DNA of 64,000 nucleotides from Patescibacteria group bacterium (GCA_038061755.1 JBBTYN010000004.1:3198-67197), one strand, 5' to 3'; positions 2,441 to 58,395 are shown, counted from the stretch's first letter. A program made the numbers and translations. Notes: a model not told the origin generated them from the letters alone.

Positions 2441-2734
2441 GTGAGTAAAATAGAAAACAATCAAAATAGTTCTGGTCCGTGGTGGAAACCAGCGATGGAG
2501 ATACTGGGTGAAGTTTCGACATGGATTGTCGTGCCTATTGTGTTGGCATTAGTTTTTGGCAAAATGCTTGATGTGCGTTTCGGAACAAAGCCAGTTATAT
2601 TTTTAGTGTTTGCCGGAATTGGTTTTTTAGTCACTTGTTTTGGTATGTATAGGGTTGTAAAGAATTATATAAAAAAATTACAAGACATTAGTCCCGACAA
2701 AAGTCGGGATCTCGACAAAAGTCGGGAAATATAA
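2441..2734 (+). CDS. atpZ: AtpZ/AtpI-like small membrane protein; putative F0F1-ATPase-associated subunit.
   Basis: Two TM helices with the pattern W...G..LD.RFGTKP. It sits immediately upstream of atpB and uses a GTG start. Confidence 0.55.
   Translation: MSKIENNQNSSGPWWKPAMEILGEVSTWIVVPIVLALVFGKMLDVRFGTKPVIFLVFAGIGFLVTCFGMYRVVKNYIKKLQDISPDKSRDLDKSREI
2692..2727 (+). repeat. Two tandem 18-bp hairpin units (tcccgacaaaagtcggga / tctcgacaaaagtcggga) at the 3' end of atpZ. They encode the repeated peptide PDKSRDLDKSRE.
   Basis: Seen directly: a 6-7 bp stem, CCCGAC/GTCGGG, with an AAAA loop, present twice. Confidence 0.75.
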
Positions 2735-2737
2735 TAT

Positions 2738-3583
2738 ATGGAAAAGATATCTCAAGAAATTACACTTTTTGCCGAACCAATATTTCATGCTGGAAGTTTT
2801 ACTGTTACCAATGCTCTTCTAACTTCTTGGGTTGTTGTTGCTATTATTATAATTTTATCTTTCGTTTTACGTTCAAGACTTAAAACAGTTCCTGGTAAAT
2901 TGCAAAATATTTTTGAATTAATAATTGAAAATGCTCTTGGTCTTTGTGACCAAGTTACAAATAGCAGAGCTCTCTCTGTAAAAATTTTTCCAATCGCTAT
3001 ATCAGTTTTTTTCTTTATTTTAATTAATAATTGGTTGGGGATACTTCCTTTCGGTGGTTTTGGAATCATAGAAAAAAGCGAGGAAGGTCTGGCATTTATT
3101 CCATTTCTTCGTGGAGGTACAGCTGATGTAAATACCACAATCGCGCTTGCAGTAATGGCAGTTGTTGGGGCAAATGTCTTTGGTGTTTTTTCGATCGGCC
3201 TATGGAAAACTTTTAATAAATATGTTAATCTAAAGGTGCTCGGGCAAATATTTACAAAAATAAGAGAAGACAAAACTGTAATTATTGTAGCTCCAATCAC
3301 GTTCTTTGTTGGTTTAATTGAAATTATTGGTGAATTTGCAAAAGTTGCTTCGCTTTCATTTCGTCTTTTTGGAAATGTATTTGCTGGAGAAGTCCTTTTG
3401 GTATCGATGGCAGCCCTAGTGGCTTATATCGTTCCGATACCTTTTCTTTTTCTAGAATTACTTGTGGGAGTTATCCAAGCATTGATTTTTTCAATTTTAT
3501 TGGTGGTTTATTTTACTATTGGAGCTACGGACCATGATGAGCATGAATCTGAACACAAGAAACATGCAATAGCCACAGTTTAA
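2738..3583 (+). CDS. atpB: ATP synthase F0 subunit a.
   Basis: Conserved SLSFRLFGNVFAGE motif containing the essential Arg, multiple TM helices, and operon context. Confidence 0.9.
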   Translation: MEKISQEITLFAEPIFHAGSFTVTNALLTSWVVVAIIIILSFVLRSRLKTVPGKLQNIFELIIENALGLCDQVTNSRALSVKIFPIAISVFFFILINNWLGILPFGGFGIIEKSEEGLAFIPFLRGGTADVNTTIALAVMAVVGANVFGVFSIGLWKTFNKYVNLKVLGQIFTKIREDKTVIIVAPITFFVGLIEIIGEFAKVASLSFRLFGNVFAGEVLLVSMAALVAYIVPIPFLFLELLVGVIQALIFSILLVVYFTIGATDHDEHESEHKKHAIATV

Positions 3584-9556: not shown

Positions 9557-10270
9557 ATGTCTAAATTTTATGTGGTGGCGACACCGATAGGAAATATGGG
9601 AGACATTACACTCCGAGCTATCGAAACACTAAAAAGTGTGGATTTGATATTGTGTGAAGATACTCGAGAGACTAAGAAGATTTTAGATAAATATGGTATC
9701 AGTAAAATAACTATGAGTTATCCATCCGATGATGTAATCGGAAAAAACTACAGACAAAGTAAGCTTGCAAAGATTTTAAGATTACTAGAAGAAGGGAAAA
9801 ATTTAGCATTAGTTTCAGACGCTGGTACACCAGGGATTTCTGATCCGGGAGCTTTACTTGTTTCTCAAATCAAAGAGCATTTTAATCCAGCAAGGGGAGT
9901 CCTTGCTGGAAAAGTGCAAGTTATTCCAATTCCGGGTCCTTCAGCCGTTATCGCTGCGCTCTCGGCCTCAGGATTACCAATTCATGAATTCACTTTTCTA
10001 GGTTTTTTGCCACACAAAAAAGGTAGGGAAACATTATTTAAAGAAATTTCGCAAGCAAAAAGAACGATGGTATTTTATGAATCTCCGCATAGAATATTAA
10101 AAACGCTAGAATCTCTTATAAAATATACCCCAAATAAAAAAGTCTGTATTGCTCGAGAATTGACAAAAATTTATGAAGAATTTAAAACAGGTACACCTGT
10201 TGAAGTTTTGGAATATTTTCAAAAGAATAAAGAGAAGCAAAGAGGGGAGTTTGTTGTTATAGTTTCTTGA
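9557..10270 (+). CDS. rsmI: 16S rRNA (cytidine1402-2'-O)-methyltransferase; tetrapyrrole-methylase fold.
   Basis: N-terminus LYVVATPIGNMGDITLRAIETLKSVDLILCEDTRETKKIL is diagnostic of RsmI. Confidence 0.85.
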   Translation: MSKFYVVATPIGNMGDITLRAIETLKSVDLILCEDTRETKKILDKYGISKITMSYPSDDVIGKNYRQSKLAKILRLLEEGKNLALVSDAGTPGISDPGALLVSQIKEHFNPARGVLAGKVQVIPIPGPSAVIAALSASGLPIHEFTFLGFLPHKKGRETLFKEISQAKRTMVFYESPHRILKTLESLIKYTPNKKVCIARELTKIYEEFKTGTPVEVLEYFQKNKEKQRGEFVVIVS

Positions 10271-10273
10271 AAA

Positions 10274-10317
10274 GCCAAAGGGCATCTTTGACACACTTGT
10301 CAAAGATGCCCTTTGGC
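10274..10317. repeat. Nested palindromic element, copy 1, variant A: gccaaagggcatctttgaca-cact-tgtcaaagatgccctttggc. It lies between the convergent genes rsmI and priA.
   Basis: Perfect 20-bp arms. Sits between two converging genes. Confidence 0.9.
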
Positions 10318-10322
10318 AGGAT

Positions 10323-12275
10323 TTACAACAAATCTTCGGGATCTACAAATATTTCAAAAGATGATGGAAGAGAAAGAAGTTTAGCTAGAAGATTTTTATC
10401 TATAGAAGAATTAGTGGAAATTTCTGGAAGAGACCATTCTTGAGTATTTATTTTTATTAATGTGTTTGTTACATATTTATTTTTATTTTTAGTTATAAAT
10501 CCACTGAAGATTTCAGGATTGTATTCTTTAAAAAGTTCTTTTAATGTTTTTTTAGCTTCAATAGACTCTTCTTTATCACCAAAATAGGTAATTTTTATAA
10601 AACGTTTATATGGTGGATAGAATAATTTACGTCTATCTTCTAATTCTTCTCGCACAAAAGATAATAAATTTCCTGCTTTAATTGCAAGGATTGCTGGATC
10701 ATTCTCATTTTTTATTTGGATGATAAGTAATTCTTTTGTGTTATTAATTATTGAAAGTACAATTTGGATAATTTTTTCACTCATTTTAAAATTTGGTATG
10801 CTCCAAAGTGAATCAAAAGAAGCGATAATTGAAAGTGACACTTTGTTTTTTAAGTAGAAAAATGCCATTTCTGTACCTATTAATATTGACCCCTGATTAT
10901 CTTCAAATTCTTTTATGATTTTTTTGGCACCACTTTCTGTTTTTGCAGATTCTTTGTCTAATCTAAAAATTTTTGTTTTTGGAAATTTATTTTTAATTTC
11001 TTCGAAAACAGTTTCTGTTCCTATTCCAAGAGGCATTAAATTCCAACTTCCACAAGTTGCACAAGCAATGTCTCCGTCTATATTTATTTCACATCTATTA
11101 CATACGAACGCCCTTTTTTTATTTTGGTGTGACATATAAAGTACTAATGGTGCTCCACATTTTTCACAGCTCATTGTTTCATTGCAGTCTTTACAAAGAG
11201 TCATAGTTGCTAAACCTTTCCTTAATGAGAAAATAAAAATACTTTTTTTATTTTCTAATGTAGATTTTATTTCTTTTATACTTTCATCATTTAATATTTG
11301 GAATTTTTTATTACCTCTCCCCCCATCGCCTGGTAATTGGCGGGCAGGCTTACCTAAAACTTCTATTTTTCCATCAAAATCAATTCTAAAAGATAACGGA
11401 TATAAGGGATTTAAATTATCCATATCTTTTCTTCCAATTGTCTCGTAGCGTAATATTTCATCAGCTATAATAAATCTAGCATTTATTTTTGAAGCATAAA
11501 TCTCTACAAAAACTCTTAAATCAATATGTGTTTTCGTAATTATTTTATAAATATTAGAATTTTCGTGTTCTAAAATTATAGTGCCAATATTTTTTTTAGG
11601 AATAGACAAAAATGGCGGAGTGCTGATGATTAAGACTGGGTGAGTGGAATTTATTATTTTTTCATAAGTTATTAATTTTTTTTTTGCATTTATTCCACCA
11701 TGTATAGAAAAAGTAAATTTTTCAATTCCTTTTGATAATTGAAGAGTAAATTTTTCTATATCAAACTGAGTTGGTAAAACCAAAAAAATAGATTTATTTC
11801 TTGCAAAAGATTCTCGAACAAGTGTTTTGTATATAGATATGCGATCTTGTAATGGATATTGAAATAATAATTTTTCAGATTTTAGATTTTGTTGTTTTTC
11901 AAGCGAGGTAAAAGGTGGGGTAAGGTGCATTATCTTATCATATTTTTCTATAAAAATATTTGGAATTAATGAAGCAATGGCACTGTTTTTATTTTGGGCA
12001 AAATATTTACTTGTATCAAAAATTGTATCAAGAAATTCTTTTAAAAAAAAAGAACTTCCTTTGTCTTTTGTAACTTTTTTTAAGTTAAAATCCATATTTT
12101 TTACATTGCTTTTTTCCCCTTTTAGTTCTTCACTAGAAGTAACTAGCGCCAGGGTTTCCTTGTTTCTTATTGGAACAGATACAATATTTCCAACAGCTAT
12201 GTTCAAACTGGTAAAATAAGTTAAATCACCTTTCAATATACATTTTTTTAGTGGTATGACGGATATTATTTTCAT
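10323..12275 (-). CDS. priA: Primosomal protein N' (PriA)-like. The Cys-rich zinc region and C-terminal lobe are intact, but the Walker A and DEEH motifs are degenerate.
   Basis: Cys-rich region CKDCNETMSCEKCGAPL...CNRCEINIDGDIACATCGS and lobe-2 motifs are present. No GxGKT is seen, and the DEEH position reads IILEHENS. Confidence 0.7.
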   Translation of the reverse strand: MKIISVIPLKKCILKGDLTYFTSLNIAVGNIVSVPIRNKETLALVTSSEELKGEKSNVKNMDFNLKKVTKDKGSSFFLKEFLDTIFDTSKYFAQNKNSAIASLIPNIFIEKYDKIMHLTPPFTSLEKQQNLKSEKLLFQYPLQDRISIYKTLVRESFARNKSIFLVLPTQFDIEKFTLQLSKGIEKFTFSIHGGINAKKKLITYEKIINSTHPVLIISTPPFLSIPKKNIGTIILEHENSNIYKIITKTHIDLRVFVEIYASKINARFIIADEILRYETIGRKDMDNLNPLYPLSFRIDFDGKIEVLGKPARQLPGDGGRGNKKFQILNDESIKEIKSTLENKKSIFIFSLRKGLATMTLCKDCNETMSCEKCGAPLVLYMSHQNKKRAFVCNRCEINIDGDIACATCGSWNLMPLGIGTETVFEEIKNKFPKTKIFRLDKESAKTESGAKKIIKEFEDNQGSILIGTEMAFFYLKNKVSLSIIASFDSLWSIPNFKMSEKIIQIVLSIINNTKELLIIQIKNENDPAILAIKAGNLLSFVREELEDRRKLFYPPYKRFIKITYFGDKEESIEAKKTLKELFKEYNPEIFSGFITKNKNKYVTNTLIKINTQEWSLPEISTNSSIDKNLLAKLLSLPSSFEIFVDPEDLL

Positions 12276-21127: not shown

Positions 21128-22138
21128 ATGTCAAATCTATATTCCAATTCAATTTTTTGGATTGATACTGATAAAATAAAACCAAATCCTTTTCAACCAA
21201 GACGAGATTTTGATGAAGCTCGTTTGCAAGACTTAGCTGATTCAATAAAACAATATGGAGTTCTTCAGCCACTTATAGTTTCTCGAGTAGAGGTAGAAAA
21301 AGATGGTGGCGGACTTGTAACTGAATATGAATTAATAGCTGGAGAGCGCAGGCTTCGAGCTGCTAAGATTGCAATGGTATCGCAAGTGCCAGCTGTAATT
21401 CGTGCAGGAGATACAGCTTTAATGAAACTTGAGCTTGCGATTATTGAAAATTTACAGCGCGAAGATTTAAACGTCATTGATAGGGCTCGAGCTTTTTTTC
21501 GCTTAGTTACTGAATTTAAATTTACCCACAATGAAGTAGCAAAAAAGATGGGCAGAAGCAGGGAATATGTTTCAAATACTTTGCGTATTTTAACCCTACC
21601 AGAAGAAATTTTAAATGGTTTATCCGAAGGAAAAATTTCCGAAGGACATACTAGGCCTATTTTGATGCTCGCAGACCATCCTCAAGAACAATTAGTTTTA
21701 TTTAAAGAAATTGTTTACAAAAAAATTACCGTACGTGAGGCAGAAAGATTAGCGAGAAAAATAGCTTATGATCGTGTACGCAAGAAAGAATTTATGCCAG
21801 ATCCAGAAATTACGGAACTGGAAGAAGAATTTCAAGAAAAATTAGGCACTCGTGTTCACATAGATAGAAAAGAATTAGGTGGACAAATTAAAATTGATTT
21901 TTTTTCTACCGAAGATTTGCGAACAATTTTAGATTTAATTCATAAAGGAGAAGTTGAAAAAAAACCTGAAGAAATGATGGATAATTATATTACAAATTCA
22001 GAGGTTAAATCTTTGGAGTTTGGACGTCCAGAATCCGAATTTTTAACATCAAAAGAAGCTCCAGTTGACGACAGATCCAAAGAAGAAGCAGAAAAAGACG
22101 AGACTGATTTATATAATATTTCTAATTTTAGCGTTTAA
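21128..22138 (+). CDS. parB: ParB/Spo0J chromosome-partitioning protein.
   Basis: ParB box GERRLRAAK plus an HTH, with an acidic C-terminal extension. Confidence 0.85.
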   Translation: MSNLYSNSIFWIDTDKIKPNPFQPRRDFDEARLQDLADSIKQYGVLQPLIVSRVEVEKDGGGLVTEYELIAGERRLRAAKIAMVSQVPAVIRAGDTALMKLELAIIENLQREDLNVIDRARAFFRLVTEFKFTHNEVAKKMGRSREYVSNTLRILTLPEEILNGLSEGKISEGHTRPILMLADHPQEQLVLFKEIVYKKITVREAERLARKIAYDRVRKKEFMPDPEITELEEEFQEKLGTRVHIDRKELGGQIKIDFFSTEDLRTILDLIHKGEVEKKPEEMMDNYITNSEVKSLEFGRPESEFLTSKEAPVDDRSKEEAEKDETDLYNISNFSV

Positions 22139-22154
22139 GTAAATTGCCAAAGAT

Positions 22155-22199
22155 GCCAAAGATGCCCTTTGACACTGAGTGTCAAAGGGCATCTTTGGC
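22155..22199. repeat. Nested palindromic element, copy 2, variant B: gccaaagatgccctttgacac-tga-gtgtcaaagggcatctttggc. It is preceded by a partial direct duplicate, gccaaagat. It lies between the convergent genes parB and rel.
   Basis: Perfect 21-bp arms. Confidence 0.9.
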
Positions 22200-22204
22200 A
22201 AACA

Positions 22205-23674
22205 TTAGCTACGACCAAAAGACATCAGCTTTGAGAGAAGACTATTTTTTTCTAAATATGATTTTATATGTTTTTTTGCAACAGAGGTTTTAACATACTC
22301 AAGCCATTTACTGGATGGCCTTGAATCTTTTTTTGTGATTATCTCAACTATATCTCCATTTTTTAATTTTGTAAAAATATGAGACATTTTACTGTTTATT
22401 TTAGCCCCAGAAATATGATTTCCAATATCTGTATGTATTGAATAAGCAAAATCTATTGGGCTTGAGTCTTCTGGTAAGTCTACAACATCTCCCTTTGGTG
22501 TAAAAATAAAGATACGATTATTAAAAAAATCCATTTTTAGGTGGTCGATAAAACTTTTCGGATCACCCGGAGAATAATTTAATTCTTTTAATTCCTCAAT
22601 CCATTTGAATTTATCTTTATCGTCCTTAGTTTTTTTTACGCCTTGTTCTTTGTAGGCGAAATGCGCAGCTATACCATAGGCTGCTTCAGTATGCATTTCT
22701 TTTGTCCTTATTTGTATTTCTGCAACACCTCCTAAACCAGTAAAAACAGTTGTGTGAATAGAGCGATAGCCATTTGGCTTTGGAATAGCAATAAAATCTT
22801 TTATTCTTCCAGGCAATGGATTCCAAATAGAATGTATTAATCCTAAAACTCGATAACAATCTTCGATACTGTCTACGACAACACGAAGTGCAACAACATC
22901 GTAAATTTTATCCAAATCCATACCATATTTTAATAATTTTTTATATAAACTATATTTATGTTTGATTCGATAATCAATTTCCACAACTTTTATATTATTT
23001 CTTAATAGTTCTTTTTTCAACACTTCACTGACTTCTGCAAGATTTTTTTCGTATGAATCTTTTTTTTCTTTAATTATTTCTTCTACTTGTGCATATTCTT
23101 TTGGGTAAGCATATGGAAAAGCAGCATTTTCCAAATCACCTTTTAATTTACCCATTCCTAGACGATCAGCTAAACGAGCGTGAATCTCAATTGTCTCCAA
23201 AGCTATACGTTTTTGTTTTTCTGGTTTTTTGTATTCCAGAGTTTGTGCATTATGTAATCTGTCGGCAAGCTTGATAATCACCACCCGAAGATCTCTTGCC
23301 ATCGCCAGGAAGAATTTTCGCAAACTTTCTACGTGGCGGTCGTCTCCTCGGTATTTTATATTACTTAATTTGGTAATTCCTTTTACCAAAAAAGCAATTT
23401 CTTCGCCGAATTCTTTTTTTATATCTTCTTCGGTTGTTTCTGTGTCTTCAACTGTGTCGTGCAAAAAACCGGCGGCAATCGTTTCCGCATCCATTTGAAG
23501 TTTGGTTAGATTCTTCGCAGTTTCAAAAGCATGTGTAAAGTATAGTTCTCCAGAATCACGTTTCTGTCCAGCGTGTGCATTTACAGCAAAATCATAAGCT
23601 TTTTTTAAAAGAACTTTTTCGCCTTCGGTAAATGGTTGCTTTTTTAGTTTATATAATTCCTCAATGTTATTCAT
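22205..23674 (-). CDS. rel: Bifunctional (p)ppGpp synthetase/hydrolase Rel, short form (HD, synthetase and TGS domains; no ACT domain).
   Basis: HD motif HDTVEDT, the synthetase domain, and a TGS region. Confidence 0.85.
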   Translation of the reverse strand: MNNIEELYKLKKQPFTEGEKVLLKKAYDFAVNAHAGQKRDSGELYFTHAFETAKNLTKLQMDAETIAAGFLHDTVEDTETTEEDIKKEFGEEIAFLVKGITKLSNIKYRGDDRHVESLRKFFLAMARDLRVVIIKLADRLHNAQTLEYKKPEKQKRIALETIEIHARLADRLGMGKLKGDLENAAFPYAYPKEYAQVEEIIKEKKDSYEKNLAEVSEVLKKELLRNNIKVVEIDYRIKHKYSLYKKLLKYGMDLDKIYDVVALRVVVDSIEDCYRVLGLIHSIWNPLPGRIKDFIAIPKPNGYRSIHTTVFTGLGGVAEIQIRTKEMHTEAAYGIAAHFAYKEQGVKKTKDDKDKFKWIEELKELNYSPGDPKSFIDHLKMDFFNNRIFIFTPKGDVVDLPEDSSPIDFAYSIHTDIGNHISGAKINSKMSHIFTKLKNGDIVEIITKKDSRPSSKWLEYVKTSVAKKHIKSYLEKNSLLSKLMSFGRS

Positions 23675-25996: not shown

Positions 25997-26857
25997 TTAA
26001 GCCAATCTTATTTCTCCTAGTTCTTCTTTAATTAATCCTTTAATTTCCATTACTGACAAAAGTGCATTGGCATTTGGTGTTGGCATTTTCATTGCGCGGA
26101 TTAAATCATCTCGAGGTATCGGTTCACGTAAAAAACTCACAACTTTTTTTTCTTCAGGCAATAAATCTAAAAATAATTTAGCTTGTTTTTCTTTGTTTTC
26201 TGGAAGCTCAAAACCTAATGCTTCTAAAACATCTTCTGCGCAAGTAACAGGTGTTGCGCCTTGATGTAGTAATTTATTTACGCCTTTTGAATTTGGAGAA
26301 AAAATTGATCCAGGCACTACTAACAGATCTCTATTATATTCTGTCGTAAGTCGCGCAGTGATAAGGGTTCCAGATCTTTCTTCTGCTTCTATTATAAGCA
26401 CTGCTTTTGAAATCCCAGCCATGAGTCTATTTCTCATCGGGAAGCTCCATTGGGTCGCTTTGAAATCAGGTTCAAATTCTGAAATTAAACATCCGCCATT
26501 TTCTACAATCTCACTTATCAGTCTGACATTAGTTTTTGGATACATTGCTTCATTTGATAATCCTGAACCAGGAAAAACTAAAGTTTTTAATCCCACTTGC
26601 ATCGCTTTTTTGTGAGCAATAGTATCTATGCCCATAGCAAAACCAGAAACTATTACTATTGGATAACCCTTTAGGCCAGCAATTATTTTTTCGCAGGCTT
26701 CGCGTCCATAAGATGTAAATTTTCTTGAACCTACGACACAAAGATATATTAAATTTTCCGAAAGCATTTCACCGATAACCCAGAGATCTTCTGGCGGTTG
26801 GGGAATTTCTAATAGCGCTTTAGGAAATTTATTTTTTGGTAATTTCTTGATTTGCAT
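25997..26857 (-). CDS. dprA: DNA processing protein DprA (Smf).
   Basis: Rossmann-like DprA core (GxARGID-like region GFAMGID). Confidence 0.8.
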   Translation of the reverse strand: MQIKKLPKNKFPKALLEIPQPPEDLWVIGEMLSENLIYLCVVGSRKFTSYGREACEKIIAGLKGYPIVIVSGFAMGIDTIAHKKAMQVGLKTLVFPGSGLSNEAMYPKTNVRLISEIVENGGCLISEFEPDFKATQWSFPMRNRLMAGISKAVLIIEAEERSGTLITARLTTEYNRDLLVVPGSIFSPNSKGVNKLLHQGATPVTCAEDVLEALGFELPENKEKQAKLFLDLLPEEKKVVSFLREPIPRDDLIRAMKMPTPNANALLSVMEIKGLIKEELGEIRLA

Positions 26858-26899
26858 AAAAGTTTTGTATTTGTAATTATTTTATTGTATACTATTTAT

Positions 26900-28171
26900 A
26901 TGTTAGACATCAAATTTATTCGTGAAAATAAAGATATTGTGCAGGCGGGTGCGAAGAAAAAAAATATTGAGATAGATATTGATGCTTTGATTGTGCTTGA
27001 TGATAATCGCTTAAAAGAACTTAAAGAAGTAGAAGAACTTCGTAGTGAAGTAAATAGAGTTTCAAATGATATATCTCGCGATCAAGATCCAGCATCCAAA
27101 ATTCAACTAATTGAAGAAATGCGCGCAGTGAAAGAAGACATTAAAGCAAAAGAAGAAAAATTAAAAATAACCATAGAAGAATGGCAGAAAATTATGGTGC
27201 AAGTGCCTAATGTGCCAGATATGTCTGTACCAGATGGAAAAACAGATGTGGAAAACAAAGAAGTAAAAGTTTGGGGTGAAATTCCAAAATTTGATTTTAC
27301 TCCTAAAAATCATATTGAGCTTATGGAAAATTTAGGAATACTTGATATGGCTAGAGGTGTAAAAGTTGCTGGTTTTCGTGGATATTTTTTAAAGGGTGAT
27401 GGAGCTCTTCTTGAATTTGCTTTATGGCAGTTTGTGCAGGATTTCTTTTCTAAAAAAGGAGGCTTTATTCCGATGATTGTTCCTTCTCTTTTGAAACGAG
27501 AAGTATTTTTAGGTACTGGTTATCTTCCGCAAGGTGAAGAAGATTTATACAAAACGCAAGATGGCGAGTATTTATCAGGTACAGCAGAAGTTGCAATGAT
27601 GGGGCACTATATGGGTGAAATTTTAGAAAAAAAAGATCTGCCAATAAAAATGCTTGGATTTTCTTCTGCTTTTCGTCGTGAGGCGGGAAGTCATGGTAAA
27701 GATACAAAAGGTATTCTTAGAGTTCATGAATTTTTTAAATTTGAACAAGTTGTACTTTGTGAAGCACAACATACAGAATCAGTAAAATTTCATGAAGAAA
27801 TACAACGTAATACTGAAGAAATTATGGAGGCATTAGGATTGCCTTATCATGTGGTAATAAACTGTGCTGGAGATCTTGGTTTGGGTCAAGTTAAAAAATA
27901 TGACATTGAAGCTTATTTGCCATCTGAAAATACCTATCGGGAAACTGGTTCTGCTAGTTATTTTCATGATTTTCAAACAAGACGATTAAATATCCGTTAT
28001 CGTGATGAAAATGGTAAATTAAAATTTGTTCACTCTTTAAATAATACTGCTCTTTCTGGTAGACCACTCATTATGATAGTAGAAAACTACCAACAAGCAG
28101 ACGGATCTATAAAAATTCCAGAAGTTTTACGCAAATACATGGGAGGTAAGGAATTTATAAAAAATAGCTAG
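26900..28171 (+). CDS. serS: Seryl-tRNA synthetase.
   Basis: N-terminal coiled coil MLDIKFIREN and class II motifs. ATG 26900 preferred as the start. Confidence 0.9.
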   Translation: MLDIKFIRENKDIVQAGAKKKNIEIDIDALIVLDDNRLKELKEVEELRSEVNRVSNDISRDQDPASKIQLIEEMRAVKEDIKAKEEKLKITIEEWQKIMVQVPNVPDMSVPDGKTDVENKEVKVWGEIPKFDFTPKNHIELMENLGILDMARGVKVAGFRGYFLKGDGALLEFALWQFVQDFFSKKGGFIPMIVPSLLKREVFLGTGYLPQGEEDLYKTQDGEYLSGTAEVAMMGHYMGEILEKKDLPIKMLGFSSAFRREAGSHGKDTKGILRVHEFFKFEQVVLCEAQHTESVKFHEEIQRNTEEIMEALGLPYHVVINCAGDLGLGQVKKYDIEAYLPSENTYRETGSASYFHDFQTRRLNIRYRDENGKLKFVHSLNNTALSGRPLIMIVENYQQADGSIKIPEVLRKYMGGKEFIKNS

Positions 28172-28208
28172 GCAAGACCTAGCATGCTAGGTCTTGCCTA
28201 GCTATTTT
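28161..28208. repeat. Perfect 48-bp palindrome aaaatagctaggcaagacctagcatgctaggtcttgcctagctatttt. It overlaps the serS stop codon.
   Basis: Seen directly. Likely a terminator or attenuator hairpin between serS and the downstream gene. Confidence 0.85.
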
Positions 28209-28213
28209 ACACA

Positions 28214-29101
28214 ATGCAAAAAAGAAATGTTTTAAATTCTCCTGGTCTTTTAGAATTAAAAAAAAGAAGGCATAGAGTTTTTTTTAATAAAGTTTTAATT
28301 TTTTTGTTTGGAGTTTTAGTAATTTTCTTATTATTAGTTTATCTTTCTTGTCTTAATAAATTAAATATTAGTGAAGTGGAGATTCTTGGTAATAAAGTTT
28401 TAGATACAGAAAAATTAAATAATGCAGTAGAAAAGCAAATTGCTGGAAAATATTTATGGCTTTTCCCTAAGACTAATATTTTAATATATCCCCAAAATAC
28501 TATTAAGAACGAACTTCAAAATGAGTTTAAGAGAATTAAAGATATTAATTTGAAGATTAAAAATACTAAAATATTAGAAGTATTATTGACTGAAAGAGAA
28601 GCGAAATATACTTGGTGCGGGATAATTTTTTCTGGTGTTGGAATCCCACAGGGAAGTCCAATACCCGAAAAAAAAGAAGAAAATTGTTATTTTATGGATG
28701 AAGATGGTTATATTTTTGATGAAGCGCCATATTTTTCTGGTGAAATTTATTTTAGGTTTTATGGTCAGGTAAATAGTAATCCTATTGGATTTTATTTTTT
28801 TGAACAAAATTTTAAACAATTAGTTGCTTTTAGAGATATTCTTATTAGTATTGGATTAAAACCTATAGCATTAAATATTTTGAATATTGAAGACGCAGAA
28901 ATTATTCTTTCAAGTGAAACTTCTTTAATAAATGAACCTAAAATTATTTTTAGATTAAATGCTGATTTTCAAAATGTTGCAGAAAATTTACAAACAGCTT
29001 TAAATACCGAACCCCTAAAATCAAAATTTAAAAATAAATATTCAATGTTGCAATATATTGATTTGCGATTCAAAAATAAAGTTTATGACAAATTCCAATA
29101 A
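28214..29101 (+). CDS. ftsQ: FtsQ/DivIB-like cell-division protein (TM helix plus POTRA domain).
   Basis: N-terminal TM helix and a POTRA-like segment (ISEVEILGNKVL...LLTEREAKYTW). Confidence 0.5.
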   Translation: MQKRNVLNSPGLLELKKRRHRVFFNKVLIFLFGVLVIFLLLVYLSCLNKLNISEVEILGNKVLDTEKLNNAVEKQIAGKYLWLFPKTNILIYPQNTIKNELQNEFKRIKDINLKIKNTKILEVLLTEREAKYTWCGIIFSGVGIPQGSPIPEKKEENCYFMDEDGYIFDEAPYFSGEIYFRFYGQVNSNPIGFYFFEQNFKQLVAFRDILISIGLKPIALNILNIEDAEIILSSETSLINEPKIIFRLNADFQNVAENLQTALNTEPLKSKFKNKYSMLQYIDLRFKNKVYDKFQ

Positions 29102-30137
29102 AAAAAATTTCTGGAAAAATCTTGAAAAACCATTTTTTTGTTTAGCGCCAATGTCGGACGTTACCGATATTGCTTTCCGCTCCATATTGATGAAATATAG
29201 CAAGGATAGAGAAAATAAAAACAGTGTTGTTTTTTGGACAGAATTTGTTGCAGCTGATGGTTTGTGCAATAAACTTGCTAGAAAAAAACTAGCGCATATA
29301 TTAAAATTTAAAGAGAGCGAAAGACCAATTGTAGCTCAAGTTTTTGGTGCTAATCCTGATAATATGAAGTATGCTTGCCAATATATTGCTAGCCTTGGTT
29401 TTGATGGGATAGATATAAATATGGGTTGTCCAGATAAATCTGTGGTAAGCCAAGGAGCAGGTTCTGGTTTGATTAAAAATCCATTACTTGCCAGAAAAAT
29501 TATACAGGCGGCACACGCTGGGATAGATTCTGCTGGTCTACATATCCCAGTATCTATTAAAACAAGAATTGGTTTTAATAAAGAAGAAATTGATATTTGG
29601 ATAGGGGAATTGTTAAAAGAGGATATTTCTGCTTTAACAATTCATTTGCGTACCACTAAGGAATTATCACTTGCACCGGCACATTGGGATTTAATGAAAA
29701 GAATTATTGAATTACGAAATAAAATAAGCCCAGAGACTTTAATAATTGGCAATGGAGATGTAAAAGATTTAAAAGATGGGGAGGAAAAAGCTCTAAAGTA
29801 TGGTTGTGATGGAGTTATGATCGGTCGTGGAGTTTTTGGTAATCCTTGGTTTTTTAAAAGCCAAAGGGCACCTTTGACACACTTGTCAAAGGTGCCCTTT
29901 GGCAATGAGGAATCAAATGTTAAAGAAAAATTAAAAATTTTAGTAGAGCACACACAGATTTTCGAAAAGGAACTTTCAGGACCTAAACATAAAAGTTTTG
30001 CCGTTATGAAAAAGCATTTTAAAGCGTATGTGAATGGTTTTGAAGATGCAAAAGAGCTTCGAGTAAAATTAATGGAAACAGAAAATGCTAAAGAAGTTGA
30101 GAAGATAGTTAATGATTTTTTAACTCGCCTACATTAA
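29058..30137 (+). CDS. dus: tRNA-dihydrouridine synthase. It carries an in-frame copy of the palindromic element at 29860..29903.
   Basis: FFCLAPMSDVTD, VAQVFG, INMGCP and GVMIGRG motifs of Dus. The start may instead be ATG 29085. Confidence 0.85.
   Translation: MICDSKIKFMTNSNKKNFWKNLEKPFFCLAPMSDVTDIAFRSILMKYSKDRENKNSVVFWTEFVAADGLCNKLARKKLAHILKFKESERPIVAQVFGANPDNMKYACQYIASLGFDGIDINMGCPDKSVVSQGAGSGLIKNPLLARKIIQAAHAGIDSAGLHIPVSIKTRIGFNKEEIDIWIGELLKEDISALTIHLRTTKELSLAPAHWDLMKRIIELRNKISPETLIIGNGDVKDLKDGEEKALKYGCDGVMIGRGVFGNPWFFKSQRAPLTHLSKVPFGNEESNVKEKLKILVEHTQIFEKELSGPKHKSFAVMKKHFKAYVNGFEDAKELRVKLMETENAKEVEKIVNDFLTRLH
29860..29903. repeat. Nested palindromic element, copy 3, variant A. It lies inside the dus ORF and is translated as QRAPLTHLSKVPFG.
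   Basis: Perfect palindrome with the ORF left open. Relative to copy 1 it has the compensatory change t/a to c/g. Confidence 0.9.
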
Positions 30138-34979: not shown

Positions 34980-37886
34980 ATGATTTCCCGAATATATGTG
35001 ACACCTAAAGGCAAAGCTAATTTCATTAATTCTTATTTAATTTCACATAAATTTGCAAGTGATCAAAGAGATAAAATCCTTAAAATAGCCAAGGCTTTAA
35101 CTAACCCCATCCTCGAAGAATTTTTTATAAATAAATTCCCAAAAACAAAGAAATTTACTTATGTAATAGAAATAGGTTTTAAACCTGGGGTCACAGACAA
35201 TGTCGGGCATACTGTAGAAGAAACTATAATTGATTTACTGGGTGTTGTCGGGTGTCCAACACCCGACAACATAGCAGTCTATACTTCTAAGATTTTTTTA
35301 GTTTCCAATTCTAAATTAGAAGAAGTAAAAAAGATTGCTCTCTCGCTTCACAATCCTCTCATTGAGCGTTCTTATGTCGCGAGTTTTGCTGAAATAAAAA
35401 AAAATGGCTTACCCTTAAAGGTTCCTAAGGTTATTTTAAAAAAGGCTATTCCTGTAATTAATGTTTCTCTTAATGTGTCTGATGAAGAACTTAAAAAAAT
35501 CGGAAAAGAGGGGATAATGGACGAAACAAATATTAGACGAGGTCCTTTGGCTCTTGATTTGACATCAATGAAAGTAATCCAAGAACATTTTAAAAAATTT
35601 AAAAGAGATCCGACCGATATTGAGCTGGAGTCTCTTGCGCAGACTTGGTCTGAACATTGTAAACATACTATTTTTGCAAATCCTATTGACGACATCAAAG
35701 ACGGTTTATATAAAACATACATAAAAAGCGCAACAAATCTAATCAGAAAAAATAAAGGCAAAAATGATTTTTGTATTTCTGTATTTTCTGATAATTCTGG
35801 AGGAATAATTTTTGATAAAGATTATTTAATAACGCATAAAGTTGAAACACACAACAGCCCTTCAGCCTTAGATCCATTTGGAGGTGCTATCACAGGTATT
35901 GTGGGTGTAAATCGAGACACGATAGGTTTTGGCTTAGGTGCTAAACCAGTAGCTAATGTTTATGGTTTTTGTTTTGGAAACCCAGAAGATAAAAGCTTAC
36001 TTTTTCGCGACAAAAATTTAACACAAAAAATGCTTTCACCAAAAAGAATAATGGAAGGGGTGGTAAAAGGTATAAATGTAGGAGGAAACTGTTCCGGAAT
36101 ACCGACTCTTTCTGGTTTTGTTCATTATGATGATAGATATAGGGGCAAGCCTCTAGTTTTTGCTGGCACAGTCGGATTAATTCCAAGAAAAATACAAGGA
36201 AAATTATCACACAAAAAACAGGCACAAGTTGGAGATTATATCGTTGTTGTTGGCGGAAGAGTAGGGCTTGATGGTATTCATGGGGCAACTTTTTCTTCTG
36301 TGGTAATGGATTCAAGTTCCCCAGCGACCGCAGTGCAAATCAGTGACCCAATTACTCAAAAAAAATTAAGTGATGCAATAATTAAAGAAGCGCGTTATAT
36401 GAATTTATATAATAGTATTACTGATAATGGTGCTGGTGGAATTTCTTGTTCAGTTGCTGAAATGGCAAAAGAATGCGGGGGAGCAAAAGTTTTTTTGGAA
36501 AAAGTACCACTAAAATACCTGAGTCTTCGTCCATGGGAAATTTGGATTTCAGAATCACAAGAACGTATGACTTTATCGGTGCCAAAGAAAAAGTGGAGTA
36601 CATTCAAAAAATTAATGGAGAAAAGGGGAGTGGAAGCGACAGTAATAGGTGAATTTACAAATTCTAAAAAATGTATTGTAGAATATAGTGGTAAAAAAAT
36701 CATGGATATTGATATGGAATTTTTACATGAAGGACTTCCAAAACAACATTTAATTACTTCTTCAGTTATTTATAAAAATATTGAACCAATACTTGAAATA
36801 AAAAAATCTTTTACTGCAATTCTAGAAAAATTACTAAGTAATAAAAATCTTAGTGGATTTTCTTTTATTTCCGAACAATATGACCATGAAGTGCAAGGGT
36901 CTTCTGTTCTAAAACCACTTTCTGGGAGAGGTCGTATAAATACCGATGCACAAGTTTTTCAACCAGTTTTAAATTCAAATAAAGGAGTTATTTTGTCTTC
37001 TAGTACTTATCCTTCATATGGAGATATTAGCACTTATCATATGGCTTCTTGCGCGATAGATACTGCTATTAGAAATACTGTTTGTTCTGGTGGAACACTT
37101 TCGCATTTAGCAATTTTAGATAATTTTTGTTGGTGTTCATCCAATGACCCAAAACGTTTAGCGCAGTTAGTAGATTCAGTGAAAGCTTGTTATGAATATG
37201 CTGTAGGTTTTGGTACACCTTTTATTTCTGGCAAAGACAGTATGTTTAATGATTTTAAAGGTTATGATGAAAAAGGGGAGCCTATGGCTGTTTCTATACC
37301 ACCGACACTTCTTATTTCAGCGATCAGCGTTATGCCTGACTTAAATAAAACTGTTTCTCCAGAATTTAAAAAAATTGGCGATATAATTTATTTATTAGGA
37401 GAAACGAATGATGAACTTGGTGGGGGAGAATATTATAAAACACTTGGCGTTGTTGGTAGTAATGTACCAAAAGTAGATTTAAAGAAAAATATAAAAACTT
37501 ATCGCGCTTTAGAAAAAGCAATTCAAAAAGAATTAATAGCTTCGGCAATATCTGTAAATTCTGGCGGACTTGCAATAGCACTCGCCAAAGCCTGTGTGGG
37601 AGGAATGGTAGGTTGTAATGTTTCCCTAAAGAGCCAGATAGCGCCTAAGGCGCTATCTGTAGAAGTAAAATTATTTTCTGAAAGTCAGGGAAGAATTTTA
37701 GTTTCTGTTTCCCATCAAAATGTTGCTAAATTTGAGCAAATAACCGCTACTTTACCAAGGGTTACCCTTGGTAAAGTAATAAAAGATGGGAAATTTATAA
37801 TTACCAATGGTAAAAATAAAGTAGTAGAAACAAATATTAAAAAGTTGTATGATGCATACCATAAATTTTCTAACTCACAAAAATGA
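34980..37886 (+). CDS. purL: Phosphoribosylformylglycinamidine synthase, a PurS-like N-terminal domain and linker fused to a PurL synthetase. The glutaminase is encoded separately downstream.
   Basis: PurS-like segment VIEIGFKPGVTDNVGHTVEETI, then PTDIELESLAQTWSEHCKHTIF and the AIR-synthase-related FGAM domains. 968 aa. Confidence 0.85.
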   Translation: MISRIYVTPKGKANFINSYLISHKFASDQRDKILKIAKALTNPILEEFFINKFPKTKKFTYVIEIGFKPGVTDNVGHTVEETIIDLLGVVGCPTPDNIAVYTSKIFLVSNSKLEEVKKIALSLHNPLIERSYVASFAEIKKNGLPLKVPKVILKKAIPVINVSLNVSDEELKKIGKEGIMDETNIRRGPLALDLTSMKVIQEHFKKFKRDPTDIELESLAQTWSEHCKHTIFANPIDDIKDGLYKTYIKSATNLIRKNKGKNDFCISVFSDNSGGIIFDKDYLITHKVETHNSPSALDPFGGAITGIVGVNRDTIGFGLGAKPVANVYGFCFGNPEDKSLLFRDKNLTQKMLSPKRIMEGVVKGINVGGNCSGIPTLSGFVHYDDRYRGKPLVFAGTVGLIPRKIQGKLSHKKQAQVGDYIVVVGGRVGLDGIHGATFSSVVMDSSSPATAVQISDPITQKKLSDAIIKEARYMNLYNSITDNGAGGISCSVAEMAKECGGAKVFLEKVPLKYLSLRPWEIWISESQERMTLSVPKKKWSTFKKLMEKRGVEATVIGEFTNSKKCIVEYSGKKIMDIDMEFLHEGLPKQHLITSSVIYKNIEPILEIKKSFTAILEKLLSNKNLSGFSFISEQYDHEVQGSSVLKPLSGRGRINTDAQVFQPVLNSNKGVILSSSTYPSYGDISTYHMASCAIDTAIRNTVCSGGTLSHLAILDNFCWCSSNDPKRLAQLVDSVKACYEYAVGFGTPFISGKDSMFNDFKGYDEKGEPMAVSIPPTLLISAISVMPDLNKTVSPEFKKIGDIIYLLGETNDELGGGEYYKTLGVVGSNVPKVDLKKNIKTYRALEKAIQKELIASAISVNSGGLAIALAKACVGGMVGCNVSLKSQIAPKALSVEVKLFSESQGRILVSVSHQNVAKFEQITATLPRVTLGKVIKDGKFIITNGKNKVVETNIKKLYDAYHKFSNSQK

Positions 37887-46377: not shown

Positions 46378-47925
46378 ATGATAAAAGAAAATAAAAAAAT
46401 AAAATCAGCTTTAATTTCAGTTTTTAATAAAGATGGACTTGAAGAAATTGTAAAACTTCTTCATAGGCATAATGTAAAAATTATTTCTACTGGTGGTACG
46501 GCAGAATTTATTCGCAAACTTAGTGTACCAGTAACTGAAGTAGAAGAAATCACAAATTATCCTGCCTTATTTGGTGGTAGAGTTAAAACACTGCAACCAC
46601 AAATTTTTGGCGGGATTTTAAATCGCCGAGATAATGTAAATGATATAAAAGAAAAAGTGGAGCACAAAATAGAAGACATTGATTTGGTAATCGTAGACCT
46701 ATATCCATTTGAAGAAACTCTAGCTAGTGGAGCTAATGAGGAAGAAATTATTGAAAAAATAGACATCGGCGGAGTATCTTTAATTCGCGCAGCGGCGAAA
46801 AATTTTAATGATGTCGTAGTGATTCCTTCAAAACATCAATATGAAGAATTAAAAAATATTTTAAAAATAAGTGACACTACGACATTAGAACAACGCAAAA
46901 AATTTGCAGGCAATGCATTTGAAGTGACAAGTATTTACGATAGTGCTATTCGTGGGTATTTTCAACCTTTGCCAAAGATGCCCTTTGACATATTGATGTC
47001 AAAGGGCATCTTTGGCAATATCCCGCTGCGCTATGGAGAAAACCCACACCAAAGAGCAAAATTTATAGGTAATTTAGAAGAGAGTTTTATACAACTTCAT
47101 GGAAAAGAGCTTTCTTATAATAATTTGATGGATACTGAAGCTGCCATTATGACCGTTTATGATTTTAGAGATCCTGCTTTCGCTATTGTTAAACATATGA
47201 ATACTTGCGGTCTGGCTGTTAGGGAAGAAGGACATTTATTTGAGGCGTATCAAGCAGCTTATAATGCCGACCCACTTTCAGCTTTTGGTGGAGTATTAAC
47301 AGCTAATAGAATTATTGAGGAAGACATCGCTAAACTTATCAAGGAACAAAAACTTTTTATAGAAGTAATTATTGCGCCAGATTTTTCAAAAGAAGCTTTA
47401 AATATTTTAATGGAGAAAAAGGATTGTAGAATTTTGAGGTGGAAAAAACCAAACCTTCCGCTAAAACAAAACAAGACTTGCTTTACTGGAATTCTGTCGC
47501 AAGATCGAGATACTCATATAGAAAGTGAGACAGATTTAAAAGTGACAACTAAGCGTGAACCAACAGAGCAAGAGAAAAAGGATTTACTCATTGCTGCAGT
47601 AATAACGAAACATTTAAAATCTAATGCTATCGCTTTAGTAAAAGATGGAACACTTCTTTCAATGGGTTGTGGACAAACTTCACGCATTGATGCATTAAAA
47701 CAAGCTATTGATAAAGCCAAAAAATTTAAATTTTCACTCAAGGGTGCTGTTATGTCATCTGAAGCATTTTTCCCATTTCCTGATTGCGTAGAGATGGCAG
47801 GGGAAGAAGGTATAACTGCTGTACTTCATCCTGGAGGTTCAAAGAATGATCAAACATCCATAGATATGGCAAATAAATACAAAATGGCAATGGTAACAAC
47901 TGGCTTTAGACATTTTAAGCATTGA
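46378..47925 (+). CDS. purH: Bifunctional AICAR transformylase / IMP cyclohydrolase. It carries an in-frame copy of the palindromic element at 46971..47016.
   Basis: MGS-like N-terminal domain and an AICARFT domain (LRYGENPHQ). Confidence 0.9.
   Translation: MIKENKKIKSALISVFNKDGLEEIVKLLHRHNVKIISTGGTAEFIRKLSVPVTEVEEITNYPALFGGRVKTLQPQIFGGILNRRDNVNDIKEKVEHKIEDIDLVIVDLYPFEETLASGANEEEIIEKIDIGGVSLIRAAAKNFNDVVVIPSKHQYEELKNILKISDTTTLEQRKKFAGNAFEVTSIYDSAIRGYFQPLPKMPFDILMSKGIFGNIPLRYGENPHQRAKFIGNLEESFIQLHGKELSYNNLMDTEAAIMTVYDFRDPAFAIVKHMNTCGLAVREEGHLFEAYQAAYNADPLSAFGGVLTANRIIEEDIAKLIKEQKLFIEVIIAPDFSKEALNILMEKKDCRILRWKKPNLPLKQNKTCFTGILSQDRDTHIESETDLKVTTKREPTEQEKKDLLIAAVITKHLKSNAIALVKDGTLLSMGCGQTSRIDALKQAIDKAKKFKFSLKGAVMSSEAFFPFPDCVEMAGEEGITAVLHPGGSKNDQTSIDMANKYKMAMVTTGFRHFKH
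46971..47016. repeat. Nested palindromic element, copy 4, variant B. It lies inside the purH ORF at the inter-domain linker and is translated as LPKMPFDILMSKGIFG.
   Basis: gccaaagatgccctttgacat-attg-atgtcaaagggcatctttggc with 21-bp perfect arms. The ORF is left open. Confidence 0.9.
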
Positions 47926-47974: not shown

Positions 47975-48000
47975 AATCTCAGAAATGAGATTTTATTTTT
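47975..48000 (+). terminator. Intrinsic terminator after purH.
   Basis: aatctca-gaaa-tgagatt followed by ttttattttt. Confidence 0.6.
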
Positions 48001-48028
48001 GTTCTACATAATAAAAAAGGAGAGTGAA

Positions 48029-48613
48029 ATGAAAAAATTATTTTTAACGGTGGTGGTTGTGGCCATATTAGCATTTTCAATTTCTTGCCGGGCGGACGAA
48101 GTGTCACTAGTGAGAATTAATGTTGTCAAAAAAACCGCTGGATTTGTCGCTGGATTTGCGTCCGGATTAGGTTTTCACGAGCTTGGACATGAAGCCATGG
48201 CTAAACTTGAAGGAGCGGAAATGCACTGGAGTGATACGAACTGGAGTACCAATGCATCCCCAGCGACCTTGCGAAACATTGCCATTGCCGGTTTCGGGGC
48301 TCAAATATTGAGCACTGAAGTTATGCTGGGAACTAACATCATCCCAAAAGACAACTCGTTTGTCTTGGGATGGTTGACTTTCAACATACTGAATACCGTA
48401 CAGTATGTTGTAACAGATAATTTGCGAAATGGAGGTTACGGAGATTTTGAGACTCTCCGTAATAACGGAGGAAATACGGATTTGGTAAAAATCGGACTAT
48501 TGGTGCACGCAGTATTGAGCGCCTACCGACTCTATAAAAATCCAAAATTTATTCCGTATGTCAGCGCGACCAAGGATGAGTTTGTCCTTGGACTAGCATG
48601 GAAATGGGATTAA
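48029..48613 (+). CDS. Secreted or lipoprotein-like protein with an HExxH motif (putative Zn-metallopeptidase-like). It is GC-rich and inserted between purH and purE.
   Basis: Strong SD AAAGGAG. Signal peptide with a Cys (MKKLFLTVVVVAILAFSISC) and a HELGHE motif. GC is about 43% versus about 32% locally. Confidence 0.6.
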   Translation: MKKLFLTVVVVAILAFSISCRADEVSLVRINVVKKTAGFVAGFASGLGFHELGHEAMAKLEGAEMHWSDTNWSTNASPATLRNIAIAGFGAQILSTEVMLGTNIIPKDNSFVLGWLTFNILNTVQYVVTDNLRNGGYGDFETLRNNGGNTDLVKIGLLVHAVLSAYRLYKNPKFIPYVSATKDEFVLGLAWKWD

Positions 48614-56844: not shown

Positions 56845-57225
56845 ATGGAAAAAATCAAGTCATTTATAGAGAGTGAGAAAGGGAAAGATATTTTGATAGT
56901 TCTCATTGTTATTTTGGTTGGTTTAGGATCATTTGAGCTAGGTAGGCTATCAAAAGAAAATGACTCGGGAAGCATAAAAATAGAATATCCGAATCAAGAT
57001 TTCAACCAAGAAGCCAGCACTATTTCAGCTATAAGTAATGTGCCAAAGACAGTCTTTGATACAAATTCATTTAGAAAAACTTTTTTCGCTTCAAGCAAGG
57101 GAACTAAATATTATACAATAAGCTGTTCTGCCGGTAAAACTATCAAACAAGAAAACAGAGTTTATTTTACAACAGGGGAGGAGGCGCAAGCGGCCGGGTA
57201 TACTCTTTCTAGCTCGTGTCAATAA
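56845..57225 (+). CDS. Membrane-anchored protein with a C-terminal Ada-like metal-binding domain.
   Basis: N-terminal TM helix. The C-terminus YYTISCSAGKTIKQENRVYFTTGEEAQAAGYTLSSSCQ resembles the Ada_Zn_binding pattern (YC...C...F.s..eA.aaGyrpC). Confidence 0.45.
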   Translation: MEKIKSFIESEKGKDILIVLIVILVGLGSFELGRLSKENDSGSIKIEYPNQDFNQEASTISAISNVPKTVFDTNSFRKTFFASSKGTKYYTISCSAGKTIKQENRVYFTTGEEAQAAGYTLSSSCQ

Positions 57226-58232: not shown

Positions 58233-58261
58233 ATGATATAGTATAGTAGTTCGCACAATAT

Positions 58262-58291
58262 ATGTAAAGCGAATAACTATTCGCTTTACAT
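58262..58291. promoter_or_regulatory. Perfect 30-bp palindrome atgtaaagcgaata-ac-tattcgctttacat immediately upstream of xer; candidate operator or dif-like site.
   Basis: Seen directly. A second, imperfect hairpin lies at 58295..58331. Confidence 0.5.
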
Positions 58292-58395
58292 AACGCAGAT
58301 TTTACGACACCGAAGGTTCGTAATAATCTGCTCAAAGCGAACTTATCCACATATATAAATATATTCTATATATTAACAAGTCCCTTCCCAGATTA

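Follow-up and report, generated by a model that had tools for sequence, protein, structure and literature searches.

The purH gene of this Patescibacteria group bacterium contains a perfect palindrome which is, in our assessment, probably one copy of a family of miniature hairpins of the REP/REPIN type, linked to a RAYT and fixed in frame in a linker that tolerates it. Relative to most PurH orthologs the palindrome is an insertion; nearly identical copies of the repeat are spread over this genome, in contexts unrelated to each other; and in related genomes a RAYT-like Y1/HUH gene is flanked by hairpins of the purH type. The family is widespread in Patescibacteria, where it occurs in Paceibacteria and Nomurabacteria-like lineages. 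Coordinates are those of the window, by which we mean the whole 64-kb stretch of DNA that was analysed, and those of the main features are collected in Table 1.

Table 1. Positions of purH, of the repeat copies in the window and of the RAYT-like gene in a related genome
Feature	Position	Strand	Description
purH (IMP cyclohydrolase / AICAR transformylase)	46378..47925	+	515 aa, intact; MGS and AICARFT_IMPCHas domains
Copy 4, REPIN-like inverted doublet in purH	46969..47018		left unit 46969-46991, loop 46992-46995, right unit 46996-47018
Copy 1, intergenic doublet	10274..10317		core GGCAT/ATGCC, loop CACT
Copy 2, intergenic doublet	22144..22201		core ATGCC/GGCAT, same type as the purH copy
Copy 3, doublet in frame in dus	29860..29903		core GGCAC/GTGCC, loop CACT; ORF 29058..30137, dihydrouridine synthase
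Single unit GCCAAAGACAGTCTTTGAT	57042..57060		in frame in ORF 56845..57225 (Ada-type zinc-binding domain)
RAYT-like Y1/HUH gene, 207 aa	locus L023, 1763..2386		flanked by one doublet and one singlet of the family

The palindrome in purH and its orthologs

The PurH protein encoded in the window matches solved PurH structures at E = 1e-99, and its intact ORF keeps every residue that is invariant among the orthologs. An earlier note on this DNA had placed a palindrome at 46971-47016; it is present as described, with perfect arms that reach slightly further (46969-47018). The order of the doublet is TTGCCAAAGATGCCCTTTGACAT-ATTG-ATGTCAAAGGGCATCTTTGGCAA, i.e. two 23-nt arms with 100 % complementarity around a loop of 4 nt, giving a total of 50 bases, with the core ATGCC in the left unit and GGCAT in the right. 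As a single strand, the region has a minimum-free-energy structure that consists of one 23-bp hairpin, whose predicted energy is -41.5 kcal/mol when computed for RNA (z = -9.7) and -28.6 kcal/mol for DNA (z = -10.3). With 3 mismatches or fewer allowed, the 23-nt arm has five matches in the window compared with none in 100 shuffles, whilst the motif CAAAG-N5-CTTTG occurs nine times in the 64 kb against an expectation of 0.12. As such, the repeat is not a chance match.

According to the predicted translation, the doublet adds 17 residues, LPKMPFDILMSKGIFGN, directly ahead of LRYGENPHQ. The reading through the insert is ...YFQPLPKMPFDILMSKGIFGNIPLRYGENPHQ, exactly as the earlier note had translated it, and the junction reads YFQ-PLPKMPFDILMSKGIFGN-IPLRYGENPHQ. 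The insert corresponds to about residues 197-216 and LRYGENPHQ to residues 217-225. In ATIC/PurH structures the boundary between the IMPCH and AICARFT domains presumably lies a few residues ahead of the LRYG motif, and the proposed placement of the insert in a linker is borne out by the AlphaFold model, in which residues 194-230 have a pLDDT below 50 and residues 196-222 are without secondary structure; this disordered stretch separates the final helix of the N-terminal domain (residues 180-195) from LRYGENPHQ. Downstream, between purH and purE, the window contains an ORF of 204 aa (47999-48613), where the syntenic locus L034 instead shows two ORFs of smaller size, with no Pfam hit on record.

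We assembled 120 PurH orthologs (75-100 % identity), whose sources are without exception MAGs and metagenomes of Patescibacteria type. In 92 of these (77 %) the linker is short, YF(Q)G-xx-LRYGENPHQ, and represents an empty site; 21 carry related units in the same linker, with cores and junctions that differ (18 have one unit, read as (M/V)SKxxFD, and three have two units), and seven hold unrelated short inserts. The closest orthologs (P0002, P0004 and P0005, 85-88 % identity) are empty, and the window PurH is 17 residues longer than the short-linker orthologs at exactly this point. At the DNA level, the empty site of L034 reads TTCCAAGGCAAAAAACTTCGT and contains no hairpin; the linker of L035 holds a doublet with the same core as in the window, that of L036 two different units in tandem, and that of L037 one unit. 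A PurH ortholog with the same peptide and no repeat, which the earlier note had named as the sign of an ancestral sequence, was not found, since the orthologs with the similar SKxxFD peptide (L035, L036 and L037) do carry hairpin DNA.

The ortholog alignment rules out the reading of the insert as ancestral PurH linker peptide, and for any account without an insertion, an assembly artefact included, we see practically no room. Such an account can draw on the similar linker length at this point in distant PurH proteins such as that of Campylobacter (4EHI). The peptide is, however, missing from the closest orthologs and from the empty majority as a whole, and near-identical DNA is present in intergenic sites and in dus. 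Furthermore, the identical PurH protein was found on 15 contigs, which excludes an assembly artefact as the source of the palindrome.

Occupancy of the linker is scattered over the similarity tree of the orthologs, and the occupied sequences show at least four junction positions (after YF, after YFQ/H, after YFQG/N/S and further downstream) and many cores; together, these differences argue for several independent events or for replacement in place. Compared with the nearest empty site (85 % protein identity), no target-site duplication, target motif or exact junction is definable at purH. Additionally, other inserts were seen among the orthologs (P0002-P0120), in the same linker or in other loops, including SSFAKASADKQ and CPQVRPVEPTGQTCGQQ, as well as AKYENEPSFAKASEGE after LYPFEETL and CLPAGEAGKNP after RILKW.

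Copies in the window and in other genomes

With the purH copy included, the window contains four doublets (two intergenic, one in dus and one in purH) and one in-frame singlet. Copy 1 occupies the 52 nt that separate the stop codons of two convergent genes (9557..10270, +, and 10323..12275, -), and copy 2 takes up nearly all of the space between the likewise convergent genes parB (21128..22138, +) and relA/spoT (22205..23674, -). Copy 3 is the other in-frame copy that had been reported alongside that in purH. It reads SQRAPLTHLSKVPFGN and stands directly after GNPWFF (in GRGVFGNPWFF), where the TIM barrel ends, and ahead of the helical domain; as the earlier note had stated, the two in-frame copies encode similar peptides, with SK(V/G)xFGN in dus shared with MSKGIFGN in PurH. 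The singlet reads VPKTVFD, or NVPKTVFDT when taken over 57040-57062, and its core, GACAG, is the one found in purH of ortholog P0003. Thus, the purH, dus and 57042 copies all lie in frame inside ORFs and are not extragenic.

Copies 1 and 3 are identical, loop included, apart from one compensatory change of a T/A to a C/G pair, whilst copies 2 and 4 have the arm TTGCCAAAGATGCCCTTTGACA in common and all four doublets share outer GCC...GGC ends. As a result, the window copies are more like one another than like the copies found at the same gene positions in other genomes. The flipped core ascribed to the purH copy is likewise present: the left-arm core is GGCA(T/C) in copies 1 and 3 and ATGCC in copies 2 and 4, i.e. 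the 5-nt loop of the unit is read in the other orientation between symmetric stems (CAAAG/CTTTG).

At the left end of copy 2 (22145-22162) there is a 9-nt tandem duplication, TGCCAAAGA twice, which creates a second, outer palindrome register (22144-22157 / 22188-22201). The window also contains several palindromes, perfect or almost so, whose sequences have no relation to the purH repeat family, namely one of 24+24 nt across the stop codon of ORF 26852..28171 (28161-28208), one with CTAGCAAGGACAGTTCTT in tandem plus inverted (1792-1847), one of 15+15 nt in ORF 34980..37886 (37748-37778) and an intergenic one of 15+15 nt (58261-58292). These may be further hairpin-repeat families.

The location of both intergenic copies in gaps between convergent genes, a few bases from stop codons, would suit a selected cis-acting signal, be it a terminator or mRNA-processing hairpin, a site bound by a conserved protein, a DNA-uptake sequence or a translational pause that aids PurH folding at the domain boundary. 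The same can be said of the great stability of the RNA hairpin, of the position of the purH and dus copies exactly at domain boundaries, and of an 8-bp stem that is kept across distant lineages whilst the core varies. In disagreement with this, no T-run follows the hairpin at any copy in the window and a terminator scan of copy 1 returned no terminator-like site, so a canonical intrinsic terminator was rejected; a known RNA family was rejected as well, because the Rfam scan of the window gave three tRNAs as its sole matches and no family at the repeats. We also considered the TTGACA in each unit as a -35 box, but by eye no properly spaced -10 box follows it. Moreover, the element is absent from the 92 empty PurH orthologs and varies in junction and copy number in the occupied ones, whilst the unrelated palindromes in the same linker point to tolerance rather than to a specific signal. 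The conservation of the stem, for its part, is explained by the association with a transposase described below. A selected signal is in our view very improbable, and a mobile hairpin family remains the preferred reading.

Beyond this genome, the unit of the family is a 21-nt hairpin, TGTCAAAG-N5-CTTTGACA. A search for the doublet pattern in a species-level genome collection returned 33 stretches, nearly all of them from Patescibacteria MAGs. The 8-bp stem of the unit is conserved across lineages and the 5-nt core is variable; cores such as GGCAT, GGCAC, AGACA, GACTC and GGCGG, amongst others, tend to be uniform within one MAG, and a few recur. For 25 of 34 doublets the location is within a stop-free stretch that spans 100 codons or more. 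TGA closes one frame of the unit, and the two open ones, which give CQRxxLT and SKxxFD, are the sole frames seen. Amongst the hosts, which were assigned by Pfam, in-frame doublets stand after the wedge domain of RecG (two MAGs), directly after the GTPase domain of TypA/BipA (three MAGs), just ahead of the anticodon-binding domain of LeuRS and just ahead of the interaction domain of UvrA; further hosts are PurD, ATP synthase gamma, MnmA and a glycosyltransferase. From the positions in RecG, TypA, LeuRS and UvrA, several insert sites are domain boundaries, as in PurH and Dus. The earlier proposal of selection for tolerated linkers is supported by this, given that in-frame doublets elsewhere than in purH are mostly found at such boundaries (Dus, RecG, TypA, LeuRS and UvrA).

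The dus site shows a similar range of states. Of the 120 Dus orthologs, roughly half are short in the linker where the insert stands, 14 carry doublets of the purH repeat family, read as CQRxxLT...SKxxFD, and many others have other short inserts. Inserts of other sequence in the Dus orthologs (P0121-P0240), in the same linker or in other loops, include RQDLxxSKRS, SPPTPLLDKERG, KPGFRNLEKPGFGE and VLSEVEG.

Two observations concern the collected loci themselves. A composite element between the two doublets of L018 was considered and rejected, as the five enclosed genes are housekeeping genes (L9, NUDIX, S41 protease, EPSP synthase and PEGA). Additionally, the family seen in Nomurabacteria/Paceibacteria MAGs occurs in MAGs that bear the titles 'uncultured Gammaproteobacteria' or 'Candidatus Saccharibacteria', and these titles may mislead on lineage; the loci in question are L006, L015, L018, L023, L028 and L031 (CAZGDX01), and L007-L014, L024 and L029-L032 (L014 being CAZKPK010000003.1).

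A RAYT-like gene in related genomes

The hairpins that flank the RAYT-like gene of L023 are identical in type to copies dispersed in the same MAG, including those inside ORFs at L015 and L031; at least eight copies with the core GGCAC are present in this MAG, some of them in ORFs. The encoded protein matches the Pfam family Y1_Tnp (E = 1.9e-10), and its sole NCBIfam match is NF047646, REP-associated tyrosine transposase, at 55.3 bits, which is below the equivalog cut-off of 80. It contains the motifs NHFH (HUH) and YVHQNP (Y-x-x-x-NP), and across 33 homologs neither H-F-H nor Y...NP varies. Sequence and profile searches against the PDB returned no match for this protein; for its AlphaFold model (pLDDT 87.6), the best fold match in the PDB is 4er8_A, the E. 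coli RAYT with a REP hairpin (E = 3.5e-6), followed by the IS608, IS200 and ISDra2 transposases. Thousands of members of this family, of ~205 aa, exist in Patescibacteria, and some are labelled RayT by JGI. Directly upstream of the L023 gene there is a tyrosine recombinase gene (2464-3303, -; Phage_integrase with an N-terminal SAM-like domain, XerC/D-like), the two being separated by a doublet alone.

At all seven further loci inspected by eye (L038/L039 and L040-L044), related hairpins or doublets were found on either side of the gene, at a distance of up to about 60 nt. An example from a Yanofskybacteria MAG is ACAATGGGCATCTTTGCA-aggat-TGCAAAGATGCCCATTGT, and the flank units of L040-L042 begin with TTAC. 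On a larger scale, 51 of the 66 metagenome RAYT-like loci with usable flanks have at least 11 nt in common between the upstream and downstream flanks; by a rough estimate, the probability of this arising by chance is a few per cent for each locus. Units of the form TGTCAAAG-N5-CTTTGACA stand at the RAYT-like genes of L056, L058 and L069, those of L056 being exactly ATGTCAAAG-agaca-CTTTGACAT and the others similar. As the metagenome genes are flanked by many different hairpin families, the PurH and Dus inserts of other sequence may be REPs of other RAYT lineages. The sole gene type found in association with the repeats is a Y1 transposase, not a DDE transposase. Since no RAYT-like gene was detected in the 64-kb window by tblastn, the link between repeat and transposase is drawn from related genomes; the same search found no second copy of the gene in the loci that it covered. 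Even for the E. coli enzyme, transposition by a RAYT is not known to have been shown in vivo.

These data also bear on whether the repeat could be a selfish palindromic element of the type of the Rickettsia palindromic elements (RPEs) that spreads independently of the RAYT-like protein, through recombination or gene conversion between copies or by means of another enzyme, with the hairpins around the Y1 gene being the ends of an autonomous IS200-like element. A window without a RAYT would agree with this, as would the 15 of 66 RAYT-like loci that have no shared flanking sequence; in-frame insertion in housekeeping genes is, moreover, a hallmark of RPEs, and the compensatory changes by which the arms stay perfectly paired are in line with conversion, or with correction templated by the hairpin. 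We nevertheless consider it unlikely, in view of the fact that the 21-nt units around the transposase gene are also found scattered through the MAG that contains it, and that the best family and fold matches are to RAYT and not to IS200 TnpA. The categories themselves overlap, with some RPEs already equated with REP families (Di Nocera et al., PMC3733652). We therefore continue with the RAYT-linked REP/REPIN-type family as the favoured reading.

Proposed mechanism and comparison with known systems

In the mechanism that we propose, a RAYT-like enzyme encoded elsewhere in this genome would bind the hairpin in single-stranded DNA, and would cut and rejoin it such that doublets and singlets are copied to new sites. 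Because intergenic space is very small, many of these insertions would land in genes, and those surviving there would have a length that is a multiple of three, avoid the TGA frame and lie in loops or inter-domain linkers. Translation of the purH copy would lengthen the linker by 17 disordered residues, with probably little effect on the enzyme, so that the insert would be near-neutral. The flipped core would correspond to the orientation of the unit's loop between the symmetric stems, and might most simply arise from loop inversion by intrastrand template switching, or from head-to-head as opposed to tail-to-tail pairing of units.

A wider reading is possible, although we lean somewhat against it: REPIN-RAYT systems of Patescibacteria may have largely moved into coding sequence, with inter-domain linkers of essential proteins (PurH, Dus, TypA, RecG, LeuRS and UvrA) acting as heritable landing pads that are time and again re-occupied and overwritten by the hairpin repeats of several RAYT lineages. 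If true, this would mean that insertion or conversion within genes is targeted to hairpins or REPs, and that linkers and loops in otherwise minimal proteomes receive new variation steadily.

The purH case is a further example of a known phenomenon, namely mobile DNA tolerated inside essential genes, as intragenic REPs and RPEs have already been described. It means that the ultra-small Patescibacteria genomes have REP/REPIN-type repeats and domesticated transposases, and that, where there is almost no intergenic space, the repeats are tolerated in essential genes. For annotation, palindrome-encoded inserts of 8-17 residues are to be expected in Patescibacteria proteins, along with inflated divergence and length variants. 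The repeatedly occupied linkers, in turn, map naturally where conserved enzymes tolerate insertions, and the case provides a tractable system for the study of target choice by enzymes of the RAYT type. In the literature we found no description of such repeats in Patescibacteria, the candidate phyla radiation or Parcubacteria, which is absence of evidence only.

The small dispersed repeats (SDRs) of Nostoc and other cyanobacteria are hairpin repeats of 21-27 nt that also occur within conserved sequences, and no transposase is known to be associated with them. They would resemble the present family in being very small dispersed hairpin units, and would differ from it in having unrelated sequences and a different phylum as host. 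MITEs, as derivatives of IS elements with DDE transposases, have terminal inverted repeats that match an IS as well as a target-site duplication; against the divergent empty site no duplication is definable at purH, and the associated gene found here is of the Y1 type.

Amongst the closest known systems are the REP/REPIN systems with a RAYT, as in E. coli (TnpA-REP, 4ER8) and P. fluorescens, which are well described, e.g. for the REPINs of Pseudomonas fluorescens (PMC3116915). In common with these, the present family has a short palindromic unit in many copies per genome, inverted doublets that fold into one long hairpin (with arms of 23+23 nt in purH), and a Y1/HUH gene flanked by the same hairpins, here in related genomes. 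Furthermore, REPs have been described between convergent genes, next to stop codons (PMC3733652), which is the situation of the intergenic copies in the window. In contrast to REPs, the Patescibacteria units lack a GTAG or CGTC tag and have the ends TGTC/GACA, which in the window copies are GCC/GGC; a unit measures no more than 21 nt, with a perfect 8-bp stem, a free 5-nt core and spacers of 4-12 nt; about two thirds of the sampled doublets lie inside ORFs; and the host phylum is Patescibacteria, with a divergent transposase of ~205 aa that falls below the NCBIfam equivalog cut-off.

Intragenic REPs have been reported too, and were proposed to be tolerated in flexible linkers and loops (Di Nocera et al. 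2013, PMC3733652). Intragenic REPs and RPEs are like the present repeats in that they are in-frame palindromic inserts, single or dimeric, of ~8-30 residues, proposed to be neutral in linkers or loops, and in that their hosts include DNA repair genes such as uvrA, to which UvrA and RecG correspond here. The REP families of that study (PMC3733652) carry GTAG or CGTC tags, unlike those described here, and RPE-1, with 100-150 bp and an occurrence in Rickettsiales only, is set apart by length and host from the 50-bp purH element of Patescibacteria. A further difference from both intragenic REPs and RPEs is that many orthologous linkers are occupied repeatedly here, by different cores and by other palindromic families. 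What is distinct in the present case is thus the phylum, the tag, the size of the unit, the high coding fraction and the repeated occupation of orthologous linkers.
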